Positions 44,630-61,110 of a stretch of 62,068 bases of DNA are shown here, in pieces. A model generated the notes under the pieces. That model was not told the origin of the DNA. It made no database searches and saw only the letters and a list, made by a program, of their open reading frames with translations. A program made the translations under genes and the position numbers. The stretch is from a virus, in the IMG/VR virus record IMGVR_UViG_3300025073_000026; one strand, written 5' to 3'. How positions within the stretch are numbered: the first letter of the stretch is position 1; every line of letters begins with the position of its first letter.

Positions 44630-44698
44630 TGGGGCGGTAGGATTCGAACCTACGTTTCCGGCATACGATCCGGTGCTTTCCTCAAAGCTACTCTCCCC
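44630..44698 (-). tRNA. degenerate tRNA-like gene (irregular anticodon arm)
   Basis: Perfect T-arm GUAGG-UUCGAAU-CCUAC, short D-arm, 4-bp anticodon stem with 8-nt loop. Confidence 0.5.
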
Positions 44699-52998: not shown

Positions 52999-53580
52999 CT
53001 AGAAGGCTTTCAATGACCATGGGGTGATATTGAAGTTGTGTTTCCTACCGTTATCCAGGAATTCTCTGGCAGTCAAGACGAGATAGGACGTCACCAATGA
53101 GTAGAATGCCACCCGGTCTTCATTCTCACAGGTAGGGATGTTGGGGTCAACATCATCAGCCTTGAAGTTCTCTGACCACACCACTCTACCAAATTTGCCG
53201 TCCGCTGACAGGCACCCGTGCAGACAAGGGATGTTCTCTTTCCTGCAATGTCCCTGAATCAAGTTCCGTGCTTCCGGATTGTCCGTGCAGTCAATGACCA
53301 GTCTGGGATGGTCCAAGATTGATGATACGTTATCCGGCACCAACTTGTGCGGGATCGAATCGACTTTGACTCCAAAGAGTCCATTGAGAATTGTCTGGAG
53401 TGCTACGGATTTCTTCTTTCCGATACCCATCTTGGTGTGGAATTGTGATCGCATGTTTTTGACTTCGATCGAATCGAAGTCCGCACCCTGTAAGGTCTCA
53501 GGCCAATTGCGAGCCAGGAGCATCAGGTGTGACCCTAGTGCCCCCAGCCCAACGATGATGACTCGTCCAGTTCCAGTCAT
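52999..53580 (-). CDS. ThiF/MoeB/E1-like adenylyltransferase
   Basis: GLGALG, DFDSIEVKNMRSQ, DCTDN..R, candidate catalytic Cys in PTCE. Confidence 0.88.
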   Translation of the reverse strand: MTGTGRVIIVGLGALGSHLMLLARNWPETLQGADFDSIEVKNMRSQFHTKMGIGKKKSVALQTILNGLFGVKVDSIPHKLVPDNVSSILDHPRLVIDCTDNPEARNLIQGHCRKENIPCLHGCLSADGKFGRVVWSENFKADDVDPNIPTCENEDRVAFYSLVTSYLVLTAREFLDNGRKHNFNITPWSLKAF

Positions 53581-53617
53581 GCCCCATATCCACTCTTGTT
53601 TCAATCCACTCTCTTTA

Positions 53618-53890
53618 TCAGAGAGAACTCTTGCCGTATGCACTCTTCGGACGGAGCATGATCACGTTCTCGACCCGCCCCGCTTCAGGATTGATCGGGA
53701 AACGCTCAACCACGTAGCCCTCCAGGTCAACATCTGTCTGAGCCGGGATGCCTACCACCGTGTTGCTTTCGATGGACTCCTCAGCAACTTTGAGCACTTC
53801 GGTATCCGAGATGTCATAAGGGACCGGATCTGTCAGGTCTCCAATGCAGCCATCGTAAGTTACGTTAACTCTCGCCATTCTCTCTTCCAT
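53618..53890 (-). CDS. putative ubiquitin-like (beta-grasp) protein
   Basis: ~90 aa between JAB and E1; strand-strand-helix start; ends IMLRPKSAYG+KSSL; strong AAGGAG RBS. Confidence 0.6.
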   Translation of the reverse strand: MEERMARVNVTYDGCIGDLTDPVPYDISDTEVLKVAEESIESNTVVGIPAQTDVDLEGYVVERFPINPEAGRVENVIMLRPKSAYGKSSL

Positions 53891-53894
53891 GTTT

Positions 53895-55154
53895 TTACTC
53901 CTTTCCAGTTGGGGTTCCAACGACCGGAACTTTTGATCGTTGTCTCAACTCATCAATGTCTACTACTCTAAACTCTGGGCACCTAACAGGTTTGTAGTCA
54001 AATTTCCCCGGACCTACCCACTCGAACACCTGTACGTCTGTGAAAGTGACTACAGGCCACAGAAGTCGTCTGCCTAAGGCACGCTCATTAGCAGACCATG
54101 TAGTCACATCCTCTTGGGAATACCATGCATCGCCATTCCATGGGTGGGTATGCGCCACACCACCAAGTCTTTCACGGTGCTCCCAAAGGATATCCCAATG
54201 AGACTTGGTGTCAGGAATACTGATCCCTGTTCTGCCTGAAGGGTCATGCCATGCCAGTGTGCAACCGTCATGGTCAAAAACAAGTGCTACTTCCACCACT
54301 CCGTTTTCCATCATACACCTGCTGTTGATCCGACCAACCTCACCAGTGTTCTCAAGCCTACCGTCACAGGATGCCTTGGGGCATCTTGTATCCCGGACCA
54401 AGGCATCCCGGGTAATGTTAAAGGTGTTCCTGCACTTATCGCACTTCCACACTTCTGGCGGGATGTCCCGAGCCCTACTTTCCTGAGCCATGACAATATC
54501 CATGTTAGGTGTCCATTTGGCCCCCTTCGGAGCCTTACCCGCCAGTTTGGCACCCAATGCTTCTGCTACCACCTCTGGAGAGATAGCCCTTTCCTTCTTC
54601 CCCGTTGCCCGGATTACCTTGGGAGTCCTAGACTTTCCAACCTCCTTGTGCACGTTATCTTGCAGAGCACCTACAAGGGTTTCCGGCTTGGGTGGGTCAT
54701 AGACAGGTTCAGTCACCTTCTTTATCAGGGGGTAAATAGAAAGGACGGCCTTCTGTTCTTGCGAGAGGCAATTGCAGTTTTTCACAGTCCAATATGGAGA
54801 GTTGGCACAATCATCCACAGTCCATGAAGGAAACCTAAGAGTCTTGGGTGGACGATTGGGGTTGGGGTCGGGATCAATGTCCTCACCAAGAACTACTGGA
54901 CCCCCGTGCTTCCTACCAGTCAGCAACTCCCAATCGACCCACAATCGCCCTAAAGCCATCCCACTCCATTCCACTCGTGGAGTAGCCCACCAACCACCCC
55001 ACGTAACCTTTAGTTCCGAACCAGATACAGCCGTAGGATGACCCGCAACCTTTCTGCATAAAGACACAAAAGGAAATCCCGAGCGATCCTTACCAGCCTC
55101 CAGTAGAAACCGGCATGGTAGCTTGAGTGACAGTGCAATCTTGTAACCAGCCAT
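53895..55154 (-). CDS. protein with C-terminal JAB/JAMM metalloprotease domain
   Basis: VEVALV...AHTHPW.....SQED matches E..HxH-x7-S-x2-D; JAB may start internally near 54314. Confidence 0.75.
   Translation of the reverse strand: MAGYKIALSLKLPCRFLLEAGKDRSGFPFVSLCRKVAGHPTAVSGSELKVTWGGWWATPRVEWSGMALGRLWVDWELLTGRKHGGPVVLGEDIDPDPNPNRPPKTLRFPSWTVDDCANSPYWTVKNCNCLSQEQKAVLSIYPLIKKVTEPVYDPPKPETLVGALQDNVHKEVGKSRTPKVIRATGKKERAISPEVVAEALGAKLAGKAPKGAKWTPNMDIVMAQESRARDIPPEVWKCDKCRNTFNITRDALVRDTRCPKASCDGRLENTGEVGRINSRCMMENGVVEVALVFDHDGCTLAWHDPSGRTGISIPDTKSHWDILWEHRERLGGVAHTHPWNGDAWYSQEDVTTWSANERALGRRLLWPVVTFTDVQVFEWVGPGKFDYKPVRCPEFRVVDIDELRQRSKVPVVGTPTGKE
53961..53987 (-). promoter_or_regulatory. Phage promoter motif inside JAB gene, upstream of Ubl-E1
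   Basis: GTTAG-N16-GTAGTA. Confidence 0.7.
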
Positions 55155-55163
55155 GGCCCCCCC

Positions 55164-56117
55164 TCAATCCACATTACGCCAAACGTGTAGGACACCATCA
55201 GCAATAGCCGTTGCAACGACTGCGGGGAGTGTCTCCAACGAATACGTATCGTCCCATGCTTTCCCGGTATCATGGTCCGTCAAACAAATGCCAGCCTCGA
55301 CGATCCGTAAAGTCAACTTATTGCAGACACATTCAAACCGTCTACCCTTGAGCCGATACCGTACCACCATCTCATTACGCCTAGTATGGGGTCTAGCGTC
55401 CAAGAATTCGGCCCCCGTCATGGCAAGGGCATACTTTGCAGCCGTATTGAAATCCCGTGCCGCCACAGCCCTTCTACCTACCGCAGAACCGATACTCTTA
55501 ACCAGCTCCTGTCTCTTCTCCTCTTCAACCCTCTGACGTTCCTCTTCATCAGCCCGTCGTTGACGCTCAATCTCCTGACGCTCCTGCTCTGCTCGTTCCC
55601 AAGTGAGATACCGAAAGGCAAGGTCAAGAGCCGGAGTCACCCCCTTGATTCCATCTACCGTAGACGCCCTATCCTCAAAAGCATGGAGCACTTCCGTTTC
55701 TGCACCCTGTGGAAACTCCTGCCCGATGTAGATCAGGGTACTGCCGTGATCCCCTACCTTAGCTACCATGGCCCTACTAAATCGCTCCAAACCGGGTTCA
55801 ACCAGATGCACCATTTGAGTTTGGTGAATCAACTTAGCAGGATCAGGGTCCACTCGGGCATCATCGGGGATCAACCGTTCCCCAACAATGTACCCCTTGA
55901 CCGTAGGGTTCCGCCCCCCAAAACCGGCCTCTATCTCCGCTGGACCCGCTATGCGAGTCTTGCGAGAACCTGAGATTAGAAAGGTGTACCAACCATGCTC
56001 CGGAGGAAGCGCACCCTCAATAGACCACTCCCTACTATGATCATAAACGGTGCGTCCCCCCGTCCACGGGAGGACCAACCTGTCAGGTTCATCCTTTATG
56101 TAATCCCGCCAGCCCAC
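55164..56117 (-). CDS. hypothetical protein with candidate E2/UBC-like C-terminal domain
   Basis: Coiled coil followed by beta-rich domain with AGICL then helix; context of E1/JAB/Ubl. Confidence 0.5.
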   Translation of the reverse strand: MGWRDYIKDEPDRLVLPWTGGRTVYDHSREWSIEGALPPEHGWYTFLISGSRKTRIAGPAEIEAGFGGRNPTVKGYIVGERLIPDDARVDPDPAKLIHQTQMVHLVEPGLERFSRAMVAKVGDHGSTLIYIGQEFPQGAETEVLHAFEDRASTVDGIKGVTPALDLAFRYLTWERAEQERQEIERQRRADEEERQRVEEEKRQELVKSIGSAVGRRAVAARDFNTAAKYALAMTGAEFLDARPHTRRNEMVVRYRLKGRRFECVCNKLTLRIVEAGICLTDHDTGKAWDDTYSLETLPAVVATAIADGVLHVWRNVD

Positions 56118-56613: not shown

Positions 56614-58494
56614 TTATGCTGCCCAGTGGGGCTTGGCCAACAACTTTGTGTCCAAGATCTCCTGAATAAGAGTCTTCCGCTGGTAAGCCGGAGTCCTATC
56701 AACCCTTGTTCCTACCGGGGTGGACTTGATCAGGTTCGTCAGCGTGCGGTTCACGCTGTACGGATCGTTGAACATCTCCGGGTTGATCATGAAGCACGGA
56801 ATACCCAACTCTCTTGCGGTATCCTGCACGATGGTTCCGTCCTGACCCATTGAGCTCTTGACCTTCAGCAATCCGAATGCAACCGGATTGAGCCCACTCC
56901 GTCTGATTTCCCTTACCAGGGCGGCATAGTCATCCTGACCCTCATCTCCGACGAAAATGAACACGGCATCCTCATCAGGACCGGGCTTGTACTTGGCCAA
57001 CACTGCCACACCTTCCTGATAGCAGGTTCCCCCTCCAGCACAGAACGGCCGGAAAGCATGTTCGACACCGGCAGCTGTGGGGGCTTTCAGCGTAACTTCC
57101 CGACCCATGGTGTTGAAAACCGAAATCCGCACCCGTTCGACCGGGAACCCACCGAGGAATTTGGTCAGGCAACTCTTTGCCAACTCGATGGCTACCTCCA
57201 TGGAACCAGAAATGTCCACCATGACGTAGACTCTCATGTTACGAGTGGCCTCTTCCATGACCTTAGCCACATTAGCATCAGCCCCAGCCTTCAGGACATC
57301 AGCCGTCTCGGCTTTCTTCACATTCCGGGCGATGTTGGCAGCCCTCTGGTTCTCAGCCTTCTCTACAGCGGACTTCCACCGCTTGGAAACATCAGGATCA
57401 TTCAGCAACCCCAACTCTTCCAACGTGGGGGCAAGAATGATGAGGTCTGCATCTGACAGGGATCCGGATTCAATGGCCGCTGCCATGATAGCCTGTGTCA
57501 TACCGGGATCGGAAGGCAGCATACCCACGAGCCTCTTGTACCCGGGCTTATCCTTCATGATCCGATTGCAAATCTGCCTCTCGGTCAGACCGACCCAGGA
57601 CTCAGCCTTCTTGACCTTCTTGCCGATGGAGATGGTACGCCGACCATCCTTGGCCTGTACCTGTTTCCACCTGAGCAGATCGAAGAAAGCCAGTCCAGTG
57701 GGCTTGTATCCAGACCACCGACTCAGCTTCATGATCGAATTTCTCCAACCACTCTTGACCAAAGCCTCCAGAGCTTTGGGATTCTGGTCACGATAGTCCA
57801 GCCACTTTCTCACAGCGACCATGAAGCGGCCAAAGTGGGGTTCTCTGGCAGACTTGCCAAACCCCAGATCATGGTTGATCTTGGCAACTCCAGGAACTTT
57901 GAGCACCTCCCCAATGCGGATCAGATGCTTTGCAGTGAAGCAGTCCTTCTGCCCGTAGATGAGGCACATGGCCTCCCCTACCGCCCGGAAGTCATCGTCA
58001 AAGAACTCCACCTTTCCGTTGGGATCCTTGACAGGCTCGCCAAATCGGGACTGACAGAGCATGAATGCGGCCAGGATGACTTTCAGGTCACGGTGATCCC
58101 GCCCATATGACCAGGATGCAAGGTGAGCAGCGAAGTCGTTATCCATCTTCCAGATGTCCGCGATCTGCCTGTACATCCAGGTCACGACTTCCGGGAAGAT
58201 ACCTGGAACACGATACTCGCCCACCGTGGTACGATCGTTCTTGACTGTGTTATCAGCCTCCAGGGTGCCAACTCGTTCCTTGGGACGTTTGAACGGAGTC
58301 CGGTAGACTACCTTGGTCCCTTCCTCGTCCTTAACAGATACAGGTTCCCATTTGACTCCCACGGGATTGAGTGTGTCCTTTGTGACCATACCGGGCCTAC
58401 CATGCCAGCAGTGATCGGCATATGAGGTCAACATGCTGATAATGCGTTCAGCCGGGCCGAGAGTTTCAAGACGAACAACAGTCTGATCTACCAT
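56614..58494 (-). CDS. TROVE/Ro60-like protein with C-terminal vWA (MIDAS) domain
   Basis: Helical domain with AVRKWL...GWR.S..KL.R..GYKP; vWA DISGSM, GGT, FVGDE. Confidence 0.72.
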   Translation of the reverse strand: MVDQTVVRLETLGPAERIISMLTSYADHCWHGRPGMVTKDTLNPVGVKWEPVSVKDEEGTKVVYRTPFKRPKERVGTLEADNTVKNDRTTVGEYRVPGIFPEVVTWMYRQIADIWKMDNDFAAHLASWSYGRDHRDLKVILAAFMLCQSRFGEPVKDPNGKVEFFDDDFRAVGEAMCLIYGQKDCFTAKHLIRIGEVLKVPGVAKINHDLGFGKSAREPHFGRFMVAVRKWLDYRDQNPKALEALVKSGWRNSIMKLSRWSGYKPTGLAFFDLLRWKQVQAKDGRRTISIGKKVKKAESWVGLTERQICNRIMKDKPGYKRLVGMLPSDPGMTQAIMAAAIESGSLSDADLIILAPTLEELGLLNDPDVSKRWKSAVEKAENQRAANIARNVKKAETADVLKAGADANVAKVMEEATRNMRVYVMVDISGSMEVAIELAKSCLTKFLGGFPVERVRISVFNTMGREVTLKAPTAAGVEHAFRPFCAGGGTCYQEGVAVLAKYKPGPDEDAVFIFVGDEGQDDYAALVREIRRSGLNPVAFGLLKVKSSMGQDGTIVQDTARELGIPCFMINPEMFNDPYSVNRTLTNLIKSTPVGTRVDRTPAYQRKTLIQEILDTKLLAKPHWAA

Positions 58495-58552
58495 GGGGAC
58501 ACCTCCGATTACATCGTGTTTGGGAGTCTTACGACTCCCGAGTTACACAATC

Positions 58553-58579
58553 TACTACTCTGATCGAAACGTACCTAAC
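58553..58579 (-). promoter_or_regulatory. Phage promoter motif upstream of Ro60-like gene
   Basis: GTTAG-N16-GTAGTA; GNRA hairpin GGGAGUC-GUAA-GACUCCC in the leader. Confidence 0.75.
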
Positions 58580-58598
58580 AGATTTTCTTTCTACAACT

Positions 58599-58686
58599 TG
58601 GTTGCAGGTGTAGGAGTCGAACCCATGATGGGTAATGACCCTTGGCACGATGTGCGCCAATCCAAGACCGCTTGGGATAACCTGCA
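58599..58686 (-). tRNA. atypical class II tRNA-like RNA, loop CACAUCG (CAU at anticodon position)
   Basis: 7-bp acceptor UGCAGGU/ACCUGCA, A73-CCA, T-loop UUCGACU, long variable arm; lacks U33 and purine 37. Confidence 0.65.
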
Positions 58687-58703: not shown

Positions 58704-58802
58704 GCCTCCCGAGTGAGGGAACTTAATCAAGAAGCACGCCATAAATGGTAGACGTGGATCCTTCGCAGAATCCGCCTTGTGGGTTCCGCTCGATTAGGAG
58801 GC
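58704..58802 (-). ncRNA. Y-RNA-like RNA 1 (shared helix, non-tRNA core)
   Basis: GCCUCCU-AAUC-GAG-C-GGAAC...GUUCC-CUC-ACUC-GGGAGGC. Confidence 0.75.
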
Positions 58803-58848
58803 TGGGATTATCAAATCTGCCCTTTGTCAAGAGCAGGTGGTGTACGAT

Positions 58849-58985
58849 ATGGGGCTCGCGAGTGGGTGAGTCGCATTATGCCTTTCGGCATGGAGCCGGA
58901 TTTGAACCAGCGACCCACAGTTTATCAGACTGTTGCTCAACCAACTGAGCTATCCTTGTGGACTCAGCCCGGTTGCGAACCCCAT
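58849..58985 (-). ncRNA. Y-RNA-like RNA 2 (shared helix enclosing tRNA-Ile(GAU)-like D/anticodon/T arms)
   Basis: GGGGUUCGC-AACC-GGG-C-UGAGUC...GACUCA-CCC-ACUC-GCGAGCCCC; acceptor stem reduced to ~3 bp. Confidence 0.8.
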
Positions 58986-59031
58986 TTCTAGTTTTCAAGC
59001 ACCACTCAGATTGGCACGAAACAAATGTGTC

Positions 59032-59160
59032 AGGCTTCCGAGTGGAGGAATCATTCAATGTTGGCAAAAGCTGGATTTGAACCAGCGACCTAAAGAACCG
59101 AACTCTTTCGCTCTACCACTGAGCAACTTCGCCTTGTAGATTCCTTCCGATTGGAAGCCT
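59032..59160 (-). ncRNA. Y-RNA-like RNA 3 (shared helix enclosing a tRNA-like cloverleaf with degenerate anticodon loop)
   Basis: AGGCUUCC-AAUC-GGA-A-GGAAUC...GAUUCC-UCC-ACUC-GGAAGCCU. Confidence 0.8.
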
Positions 59161-59163
59161 TAG

Positions 59164-59301
59164 TGGGGGACCGAGGACTCGAACCTCGAATTTCTTGTGA
59201 GTTTGTGCCGATTGGGGGCCTTGCGGCTCCCGAGTGACCAAACTGGATTTACGAAAGCTTGATTTATAGTCAAGTGCCTTTACCAATTCGGCCAATCCCC
59301 C
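59164..59301 (-). ncRNA. tRNA-Tyr(AUA)-like RNA with the shared helix inserted, permuted, in the variable arm
   Basis: Acceptor GGGGGAU/GUCCCCC, CUUGA-CUAUAAA-UCAAG, ~70-nt variable region, T-arm CGAGG-UUCGAGU-CCUCG. Confidence 0.8.
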
Positions 59302-59398: not shown

Positions 59399-59425
59399 TA
59401 CTACTCTACTTTTCGGGAGACTAAC
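59399..59425 (-). promoter_or_regulatory. Phage promoter motif
   Basis: GTTAG-N16-GTAGTA. Confidence 0.75.
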
Positions 59426-59727
59426 AGAATTATTTTCATCAACCCCCCAAAATTCTGTTATGAGGCCTATCACGCCCTCCGCTCATCCAACAAACCGATC
59501 AGCTTGTCAGCCAACCACTCCAATTCTTCCCCCACCAACTTATCTACCAGAGCATCGGTCATGTCGCAAGACTGTGCGTTTAGGGATTCCTGGATGTTTT
59601 GCCTTACTCGCTGTTCAATGGTTTCACAGAAACGACACATATTTACCGCCCCCCCTCCTATCATCCTTGACCTTGCCCAACGTATAGACACCATAACAGA
59701 GTGGTGAGATGCCACCCCGTTATGATC

Positions 59728-60315: not shown

Positions 60316-61110
60316 CTAGAACAGCAATTTCACTCTACCAGCCAGACACTCAGGAAGCTTTGCTGCTACTTCCTTGATCTGGTCATCCGAGTACCGACCG
60401 GAGAAGTGGGTCAAGTAGATTTCATCGTTCTTAAAGTGGTCAGCCCGCTCGATGATCTCTTTCAGGTGAATGTGGCCCTTGTCATGCGCCTCTTCCACTG
60501 GAACGTCATCCTCAGCGAATGTGCACTCCATGATCAGGGTCTTAGCCGTGTAGACCACGGGATGAGCGTCAAGGGCGGCAATCCGAGTATCCCCCGTGTA
60601 GACGACTTCAAGGGTATCCCGGCTCTCCTGCACTTCCACACCCTGATCCACTTTGAGCCTACGAATCTCCTCACCGGGAAGTCCTGCGAACTCAGCCTTC
60701 AACTTCCTGACCGTCCTGTATATCTCGTACCCTCGACTTTCGATTCTGTGATCGGCCTTGAAAGTACGGAACCACACCCCCTTACCAAGACAGGTATCAA
60801 AGCCATCAGGAACTGACGCTACATAGTAGTTGAAGCCCCCCTGCATCTTGATCCACTTTGTGAACATGTCTCGCAAGTCATCCCCAAGAAACTCAGGGAC
60901 GAAGAAGTGACTCGTGGGCATCCCGACCAACGACCTGTAGGAAGCATGGTGAATGACACCCGCCATGTGGTCGATGTGTGCATGAGTGATCAATACGTCT
61001 CTGTATCGGGCTGCCTCCAATGGACAGAGTCCCATGTCCAAAACCAACTTCAGTTCCGGAAGCATGATGCATGTTCCGATCCCACTCTTGGATGTTCCAG
61101 TAACCTTCAT
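60316..61110 (-). CDS. MBL-fold metallo-hydrolase, RNase Z (tRNase Z)-like
   Basis: THAHIDH, YTGDT, MECTF, GHIH, THFSGRY, exosite-like KLKAEF.GL.GEEI. Confidence 0.85.
   Translation of the reverse strand: MKVTGTSKSGIGTCIMLPELKLVLDMGLCPLEAARYRDVLITHAHIDHMAGVIHHASYRSLVGMPTSHFFVPEFLGDDLRDMFTKWIKMQGGFNYYVASVPDGFDTCLGKGVWFRTFKADHRIESRGYEIYRTVRKLKAEFAGLPGEEIRRLKVDQGVEVQESRDTLEVVYTGDTRIAALDAHPVVYTAKTLIMECTFAEDDVPVEEAHDKGHIHLKEIIERADHFKNDEIYLTHFSGRYSDDQIKEVAAKLPECLAGRVKLLF

Follow-up and report, generated by a model that had tools for sequence, protein, structure and literature searches.

Four RNAs with a common structured module upstream of a divergent Ro60-like gene in a viral genome: a candidate branch of the Y RNAs

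An array of four RNAs precedes a Ro60-like gene

The DNA analysed here is a stretch of 62,068 nucleotides from a virus, a large phage (IMG/VR record IMGVR_UViG_3300025073_000026), hereafter called the window, in which an earlier note, made from the letters alone, had pointed to four RNAs sharing a covarying helix upstream of a Ro60/TROVE gene. The four RNAs are encoded on the minus strand, in a stretch without called genes that is bounded by the end of a short open reading frame (ORF) at 59470 and by the start codon of the Ro60-like gene at 58494. The first of them, RNA1 (59164..59301), is tRNA-shaped, with a 7-bp acceptor stem, a canonical anticodon loop (anticodon AUA) and no encoded CCA, and its module of 51 nt (59194..59244) is located in the variable arm, an arrangement that we call wiring A. 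The module consists of a helix, an ACUC loop, a stem capped by GCAA, an AAUC loop, a helix and the tail CACAAG. RNA1 scored 48.3 bits against the Rfam tRNA model, with a long insert in the variable region, and 21.7 with our structure descriptor; its match to model R1 is not independent, because the RNA1 module belonged to the training set of that model. In RNA2 (59032..59160) and RNA3 (58850..58984) the paired ends of the RNA form the module and enclose tRNA-like cargo (wiring B). The RNA2 cargo is a whole cloverleaf (59133-59062) with anticodon UCG, G32 and no CCA; as a small correction to the earlier note, it has a full, embedded 7-bp acceptor stem, and ARAGORN assigns it as tRNA-Arg(TCG). 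The RNA3 cargo comprises a GAAA hairpin and a D-anticodon(GAU)-T core that lacks a proper acceptor stem, and RNA4 (58704..58802) carries two non-tRNA hairpins within its ends-paired module (wiring D, YrlB-like).

All four modules and every strand pair listed in the earlier note are present in the sequence; the outer stems measure 6-11 bp instead of the 7-9 bp given before. By using RNAfold unaided, the layout of stem, 4x4 internal loop, 3 bp, 1-nt bulge and 5-6 bp was recovered in RNA2-4, where the paired ends form a long stem; the fold z-scores of these three RNAs were -3.3, -5.4 and -2.7, respectively. For RNA1 the layout had to be corrected: the strand order is reversed relative to RNA2-4, the stem contains one A-C mismatch, and it is closed by a tetraloop rather than formed by paired ends. 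The constrained fold containing the RNA1 module has an energy of -47.2 kcal/mol, and a competing fold at -50.0 kcal/mol, in which a D-arm strand pairs with the ACUC strand of the module, is 2.8 kcal/mol more stable, which may reflect a switch or an artefact of prediction. Across the window the structure descriptor gave only four strong matches (21.7-25.5), and two more at 17-18.

RNA4 is followed on the minus strand by a CCA-ended pseudo-tRNA (58599..58686) with a long D stem of 6 bp, a long variable arm and a degenerate CAU loop, which contains no module and is probably the last unit of the array. It reached 31.3 bits against the Rfam tRNA-Sec model (cut-off 47), with a fold z-score of -4.2. 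At another locus (L002:3502-3581), a similar sequence upstream of the Ro60-like gene shares these acceptor ends and has a CAU loop of canonical form.

The adjacent gene encodes a predicted Ro60-fold protein

The gene behind the array (56614..58494, minus strand) encodes a protein of 626 aa, predicted to form a TROVE-fold helical ring followed by a vWA domain with an intact MIDAS. In the AlphaFold model of the full protein (pLDDT 89.6), Ro60 entries occupied Foldseek ranks 1-12. When the N-terminal 416 residues were folded alone and compared with 48,161 chains, the Ro60 proteins of Xenopus, Deinococcus and phage phiLo ranked first, with Z-scores of 11.4 (root-mean-square deviation 4.8, 293 residues aligned), 9.7 and 8.9, and the next chain scored 5.8; Foldseek with this domain alone gave probabilities of 0.92-1.0 at E above 0.01. 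The MIDAS residues D427, S429, S431, T490 and D517 are invariant in 120 sequences, and matches to vWA domains were obtained as well. The Pfam TROVE family (PF05731) did not match the 626-aa protein, nor was a precomputed match found among 120 homologs, and sequence searches for TROVE in Pfam, PHROGs, NCBIfam and PDB returned only the vWA part, weakly. Since the top structural ranks are Ro60, the MIDAS is invariant and a Pfam match is lacking, the protein is, as far as predicted structures go, a divergent Ro60-fold protein outside the Pfam TROVE family; the TROVE-vWA fold proposed in the earlier note holds at that level. Among the candidates scored, the family comprises 1,332 clusters from jumbo-phage contigs and from genomes mostly of Myxococcota. 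In the predicted ring, a beta-strand insert at residues ~30-95 separates the first helices from the main helical repeat.

The module is conserved in three tRNA wirings

To define the module beyond the window, 194 loci of related jumbo phages and Myxococcota were scanned by the structure descriptor, with the opposite strand and shuffled sequences as controls. The scan yielded 348 tRNA-linked copies, all 348 on the strand of the Ro60-like gene, and zero on the opposite strand or in shuffled sequence. The copies sit up to 2 kb upstream of the gene or 4-7 kb downstream, behind a conserved gene cassette described below; the array of the window lies 0.2-0.8 kb upstream. In 178 copies the module is located in the variable arm of a tRNA (wiring A), in 110 the paired ends enclose the D, anticodon and T arms (wiring B), and in 60 they enclose the T arm, a closed acceptor stem, the D arm and the anticodon arm (wiring C). 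Wiring C is a circular permutation of wiring A and has the permuted order of the known bacterial Y RNA YrlA. All three occur together in 19 loci. Copies with non-tRNA cargo, of the type of RNA4, are also enriched (39 versus 6 on the other strand).

The mutual information of motif-anchored copies, calculated with no pairing filter, peaked exactly at both helices; in this run the automatically assigned class C was contaminated and gave no signal, and the classes were later reassigned. We relied on this analysis because the pair counts from alignment A2 (80.8% paired) are selection-biased. Unconstrained folding recovered both helices in 117 of the 167 wiring A copies folded, 91/105 of wiring B and 48/56 of wiring C. 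The constant bases are CUC-G in the internal loop and ACA(A/C)G in the tail, and a relaxed motif search found them in 162/~177 (as CUC-R) and 162/~175 copies, respectively. Thus, of the loops described before as almost invariant, the CUC-G side is constant and the AAYC side varies across the family. The bulged helix, previously taken as a key feature, did not stand: the bulge is present in only 94/348 copies (27%) and was rejected as a defining feature. It behaves as a trait of the locus (35 homogeneous loci versus 19.6 expected), and modules of the same wiring are more similar within a locus (0.66) than between loci (0.50).

The three wirings keep different parts of the tRNA. Wiring B has canonical anticodon loops in 78/101 copies, with 35 different anticodons, and a complete acceptor stem in 6/87 only. 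Wiring A has a 7-bp acceptor in 168/176 copies and encoded CCA in 48, with canonical loops in only 51 of the 127 seven-base anticodon loops and D arms that are often rebuilt. Many wiring C copies have acceptor stems of 7-8 bp, and CCA occurs in the closing loop in 12/41. In one myxobacterial genome (L431:5850-6770), tandem wiring C RNAs were observed, two of them with a shortened anticodon arm.

RNA and protein occur together

A module copy was found in 67 of the 89 distinct loci for which both flanks were available. In the reverse direction, 32 viral records with a well-scoring module were found by the RNA pattern alone, and 28 of them encode the Ro60-like protein, protein and RNA records being paired by contig name, by hand; the remaining four are fragments with a completeness of 14-31%. 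An initial DNA-pattern scan of viral records had returned mostly chance matches, and tighter patterns with the structure descriptor were then applied. Four records at the marginal score of 15.9 were put aside; none of them encodes the protein. In a distant subfamily of the Ro60-like protein (580-600 aa), strong module copies were present at 2/3 loci. As a control, 15 Pfam-TROVE loci amid dense tRNA arrays, all from one myxobacterial class, gave three marginal module matches only. The linkage to Ro60-like genes elsewhere, on which the earlier note had staked its proposal, is borne out by these counts and by the strand bias of 348 versus 0; searches of 151 genomes with model R1 and with patterns were too insensitive or noisy for testing linkage.

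Two side observations were made on the copies and the control loci. At L221, L262, L340 and L347, single modules lie on incomplete phage contigs in which the protein gene was not found, and some module copies may be dispersed in tRNA regions; L340 also has an RNase Z-like gene similar to that of the window. The very dense tRNA arrays of L434-L448 in myxobacterial genomes (as many as 20 T arms within 3.9 kb) contain canonical Pfam-TROVE genes, and their YrlA matches are all sub-threshold (33-46 bits).

The RNAs resemble Y RNAs without matching a known family

No Rfam family besides tRNA reaches its cut-off on these RNAs, and YrlA (RF02553) has no match in the window at E<=10. The wiring C relatives scored 30.1, 39.3 and 42.7 bits against YrlA (cut-off 69), scores that stem from the T and D arms. 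The claim of a new family of Y RNAs or tRNA mimics is therefore retained as regards the missing Rfam match and narrowed in another respect: the architecture parallel to YrlA, together with relatives at 30-43 bits, indicates a distant variant and not an unrelated new class. The L431 RNAs, which are closest to YrlA (39-43 bits), may bridge the two families.

YrlA has been described with Rsr/Ro60 (Chen et al. 2014, PMC4201824; Wang et al. 2018, 10.1101/312249). As in YrlA, a tRNA-mimic domain is joined here to a module of stem, internal loop and helix, several RNAs occur per locus, and they adjoin a Ro60-fold gene on the same strand, within the ~4 kb general for bacterial Y RNAs. The T-acceptor-D order of YrlA corresponds to wiring C, that is, to 60 relatives and to none of the four window RNAs. 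A comparison by eye shows a common order in the YrlA consensus and here, from the stem through the internal loop and a helix to CUAC and the T arm; ACUUG in the 3' loop of YrlA stands where these RNAs have ACUCG, and YACA(A/C)G sits where YrlA has CUAC (YUAY), at the beginning of the variable region ahead of the T arm, but the Rfam model does not align these parts. Several features differ. YrlA lacks an anticodon loop (10.1101/312249), whereas the anticodon arm is kept here, shortened in a few L431 relatives; the YrlA module extends the anticodon stem, whereas here the module leaves the variable loop or the acceptor side; and un-permuted (A) and D-anticodon-T (B) wirings exist here in addition. 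Also unlike the YrlA system, the protein falls outside Pfam TROVE and is accompanied by a leader mimic and a cassette of ubiquitin-like, E1 and JAB genes, both described below.

The ends-paired stem, here the putative protein dock, is shared with Yrn1 and Yrn2 of Deinococcus and with animal Y RNAs; relative to these, the conserved bases of the present RNAs are on the opposite strand and belong to an internal loop. Yrn1 contains a T arm and possibly an anticodon arm, and a tRNA is co-transcribed with Yrn1 and Yrn2 (PMC4201824). A further related system is that of Thermus phage phiLo (PMC12135203; PDB 9KOP, 9L5Y), which likewise has a phage Ro60, the top Foldseek match, and upstream RNAs, Yrl1 and Yrl2, which were recognised through CGAA motifs and reported to be hairpins (PMC12135203). 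The two proteins are 16% identical, and the 626-aa protein exceeds the solved chain by ~160 residues and carries the beta insert.

We consider it probable that the divergent Ro60 protein encoded next to the array has these four RNAs as Y-RNA-like partners; most likely they represent a so far undescribed Y RNA branch in which tRNA anticodon arms are retained. We infer that they work like Y RNAs without being YrlA members. No paper describing this RNA family was found in the literature searched, some key reviews lying outside it, and an earlier description is possible. Several observations weigh against the assignment. The 5' Ro-binding motif that defines YrlA, GNCGAA (PMC4201824) or in full GNCGAAN0-1G, is absent, and CGAA within 24 nt before the tail occurs in 24/348 copies and in none of the window modules. 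The bulged GGUCCGA helix of Deinococcus and animal Y RNAs has no counterpart, GGUCCGA being found in 0/348 copies and the bulge being optional. HHalign of the protein against 14 canonical TROVE proteins gave a probability of 10.7% and found only the vWA part; a sequence-level link to TROVE is missing. The flanks of 22/89 loci contain no copy, several of these loci having copies further along the contig, and the GenBank virus Rctr197k has the protein with neither module nor cassette nearby. Finally, the loci are related, and the family and linkage counts carry no phylogenetic correction.

A mimic of the module lies in the leader of the Ro60-like gene

A motif that we take for a phage promoter, CTGTTAG-N15-AGTAGTA, is present on the minus strand in a perfect copy before the RNA array (59399..59427) and in a second perfect copy before the Ro60-like gene (58553..58581). 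With up to 2 mismatches it has 17 matches in the window versus 0.19 expected, at sites including 59427, 58581, 53989, 45442, 43398, 38925 and 31978.

Between the second copy and the gene lies a mimic of the module (58513..58551, minus strand), composed of an ACUCG hairpin and a lower helix with no ACAAG tail, 6 nt upstream of the Shine-Dalgarno sequence (58506-58501). ACUCG with a hairpin is present in 31/152 leaders of the Ro60-like gene versus 2/347 control leaders from the same loci. A lower helix of at least 4 bp closing the same internal loop was found in 22 of the 55 hairpin-bearing leaders (7.9 expected, maximum 15); it mostly touches or covers the Shine-Dalgarno sequence, and the ACA(A/C)G tail is never present. 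The mimic is a candidate autogenous operator, and the analogy is the autogenous control exerted by RNA-binding proteins. Of the genomic evidence, it speaks most strongly for a reading of the CUC-G loop by some product of the operon and for a separate role of the tail. A tail-less copy of the module at the ribosome-binding site of the gene also suggests that the Ro60-like protein binds the module and represses its own synthesis.

The downstream cassette

Four genes on the minus strand follow the Ro60-like gene. The first encodes a 317-aa protein of unknown fold (55164..56117), conserved behind the Ro60-like gene at 102/103 loci, for which no match was found in Pfam, the ESM Atlas or any other library tried. 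It is followed by a JAB-domain protein (53895..55154; Prok-JAB at a weak E of 0.006; 87/103 loci), a small protein that is a candidate ubiquitin-like modifier (53618..53920; 91/103 loci) and a ThiF/E1-like adenylyltransferase (52999..53643; ThiF E 8e-23; 83/103 loci). One copy of the promoter motif lies within the JAB gene, ahead of the pair of ubiquitin-like and E1 genes. On the other side, 1 kb upstream of the array, an RNase Z-like metallo-beta-lactamase is encoded (60316-61110, minus strand; TIGR02651 E 8e-21, under the cut-off). This gene, an upstream HNH gene and a 146-aa ORF were considered as conserved parts of the system and rejected, as they are not conserved beside the Ro60-like gene in the 103 loci.

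Possible roles of the RNAs and alternative explanations

In the mechanism that we propose, the array would be transcribed as one unit from the putative promoter at 59427, and the transcript would be cut into units. The Ro60-like ring would then probably dock on the CUC-G loop and display the tRNA elbow and the anticodon arm, and spare protein would bind the leader mimic, which has no tail and lies at the ribosome-binding site of the gene, thereby limiting its own synthesis. As to the job of the complex, our preference is tentative: the RNAs are possibly non-chargeable tRNA baits for host tRNA-recognising enzymes, such as anticodon nucleases, acting in counter-defence or RNA repair and perhaps in delivery to the co-encoded ubiquitin-like enzymes. 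In wiring B the anticodon arms are well formed and the acceptor is mostly lost, which suggests that selection keeps the shape read by tRNA-attacking or tRNA-modifying enzymes and not chargeability. The diversity of anticodons also fits drift, which counts against the bait. Moreover, wiring A keeps 7-bp acceptors and sometimes CCA, even with irregular loops, and some of its members may therefore be chargeable. A bolder version is speculative and unlikely: the ring would display a panel of baits with intact, varied anticodon loops, capture anticodon nucleases of the host or other tRNA-targeting defence proteins and deliver them to the co-encoded enzymes of ubiquitin-like conjugation, an RNA-baited form of counter-defence by protein tagging, with the variable-arm form as a still existing step from tRNA to Y RNA.

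We favour a bait or decoy over a tether and over a processing element. The tether, of the RYPER type, shares the binding step and differs in the job: the RNA would link the Ro60 ring to the host PNPase or another exonuclease and tune decay, and the tRNA domain would only stabilise it. Such tethering is established for Rsr, with either Yrn1 or YrlA as the RNA (PMC4201824), as well as for the phiLo Ro60, the top Foldseek match, with Yrl1/2 (PMC12135203), and the non-tRNA cargo, genuine in this family by the count of 39 versus 6, agrees with it. It leaves unexplained, however, why canonical anticodon loops are kept, which YrlA lacks (10.1101/312249), and why the JAB, ubiquitin-like and E1 cassette is nearly constant. 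We regard the tether as doubtful, though credible.

Working tRNAs might instead be the end product, with the module as a processing signal or an intron-like insert that is excised, or with a permuted precursor that is circularised and reopened. Processing of this sort has been raised as a possibility for YrlA (10.1101/312249; PMC4201824), and the acceptor stems and CCA of wirings A and C, as well as the RNase Z-like gene near the array, would fit. The explanation is nevertheless quite unlikely, as wiring B mostly has no acceptor stem, the anticodon loops and D arms of wiring A are largely irregular or rebuilt, wiring D and the mRNA leader offer no tRNA to mature, and the RNase Z-like gene is no conserved neighbour of the system.

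The leader mimic also bears on which protein binds. Since it has no tail, the module has two separable conserved parts and two readers are possible; the mimic could be read by another product of the cassette, most likely the 317-aa protein, whose gene is present at nearly every locus, and the operator would govern the whole operon, while the Ro60-like protein would bind elsewhere or indirectly. We consider this improbable, because binding of such ends-paired helices is a known property of the Ro60 fold, and by eye the module is placed as the Ro-binding stem of YrlA in the Rfam consensus. That the RNAs are merely degenerate, duplicated tRNA genes resembling one another by chance, as the many pseudogenes in phage tRNA arrays and the higher similarity within loci could suggest, is refuted by the strand bias, the covariation found without a pairing filter and the near absence of the module from the tRNA arrays beside canonical TROVE genes.

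If the RNAs are Y-RNA-like partners of the Ro60-like protein, as we think probable, a large branch of Ro60 and Y RNA systems, with more than 1,300 protein clusters mostly in jumbo phages and Myxococcota, has been missed by Pfam TROVE and Rfam, and its RNAs have partly been annotated as ordinary tRNAs. One docking module occurs in tRNA order, in the permuted order of YrlA and around a tRNA core, often within one locus; with the same module in several wirings, the origin of Y RNA from tRNA becomes testable by direct comparison. The leader mimic predicts a minimal binding site and an autoregulatory loop, and the fixed link to ubiquitin-like enzymes hints that tRNA mimicry and protein tagging may be connected in the conflict of phage and host.

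Other RNA genes

In related phages, SRP RNA and tmRNA were observed close behind the cassette and the RNA array (L042:11907-11999 and L034:11865-12243). Elsewhere in the window, a tRNA-like gene (44630-44697, minus strand; 36 bits in Rfam), missed by ARAGORN, lies directly behind tRNA-Thr.
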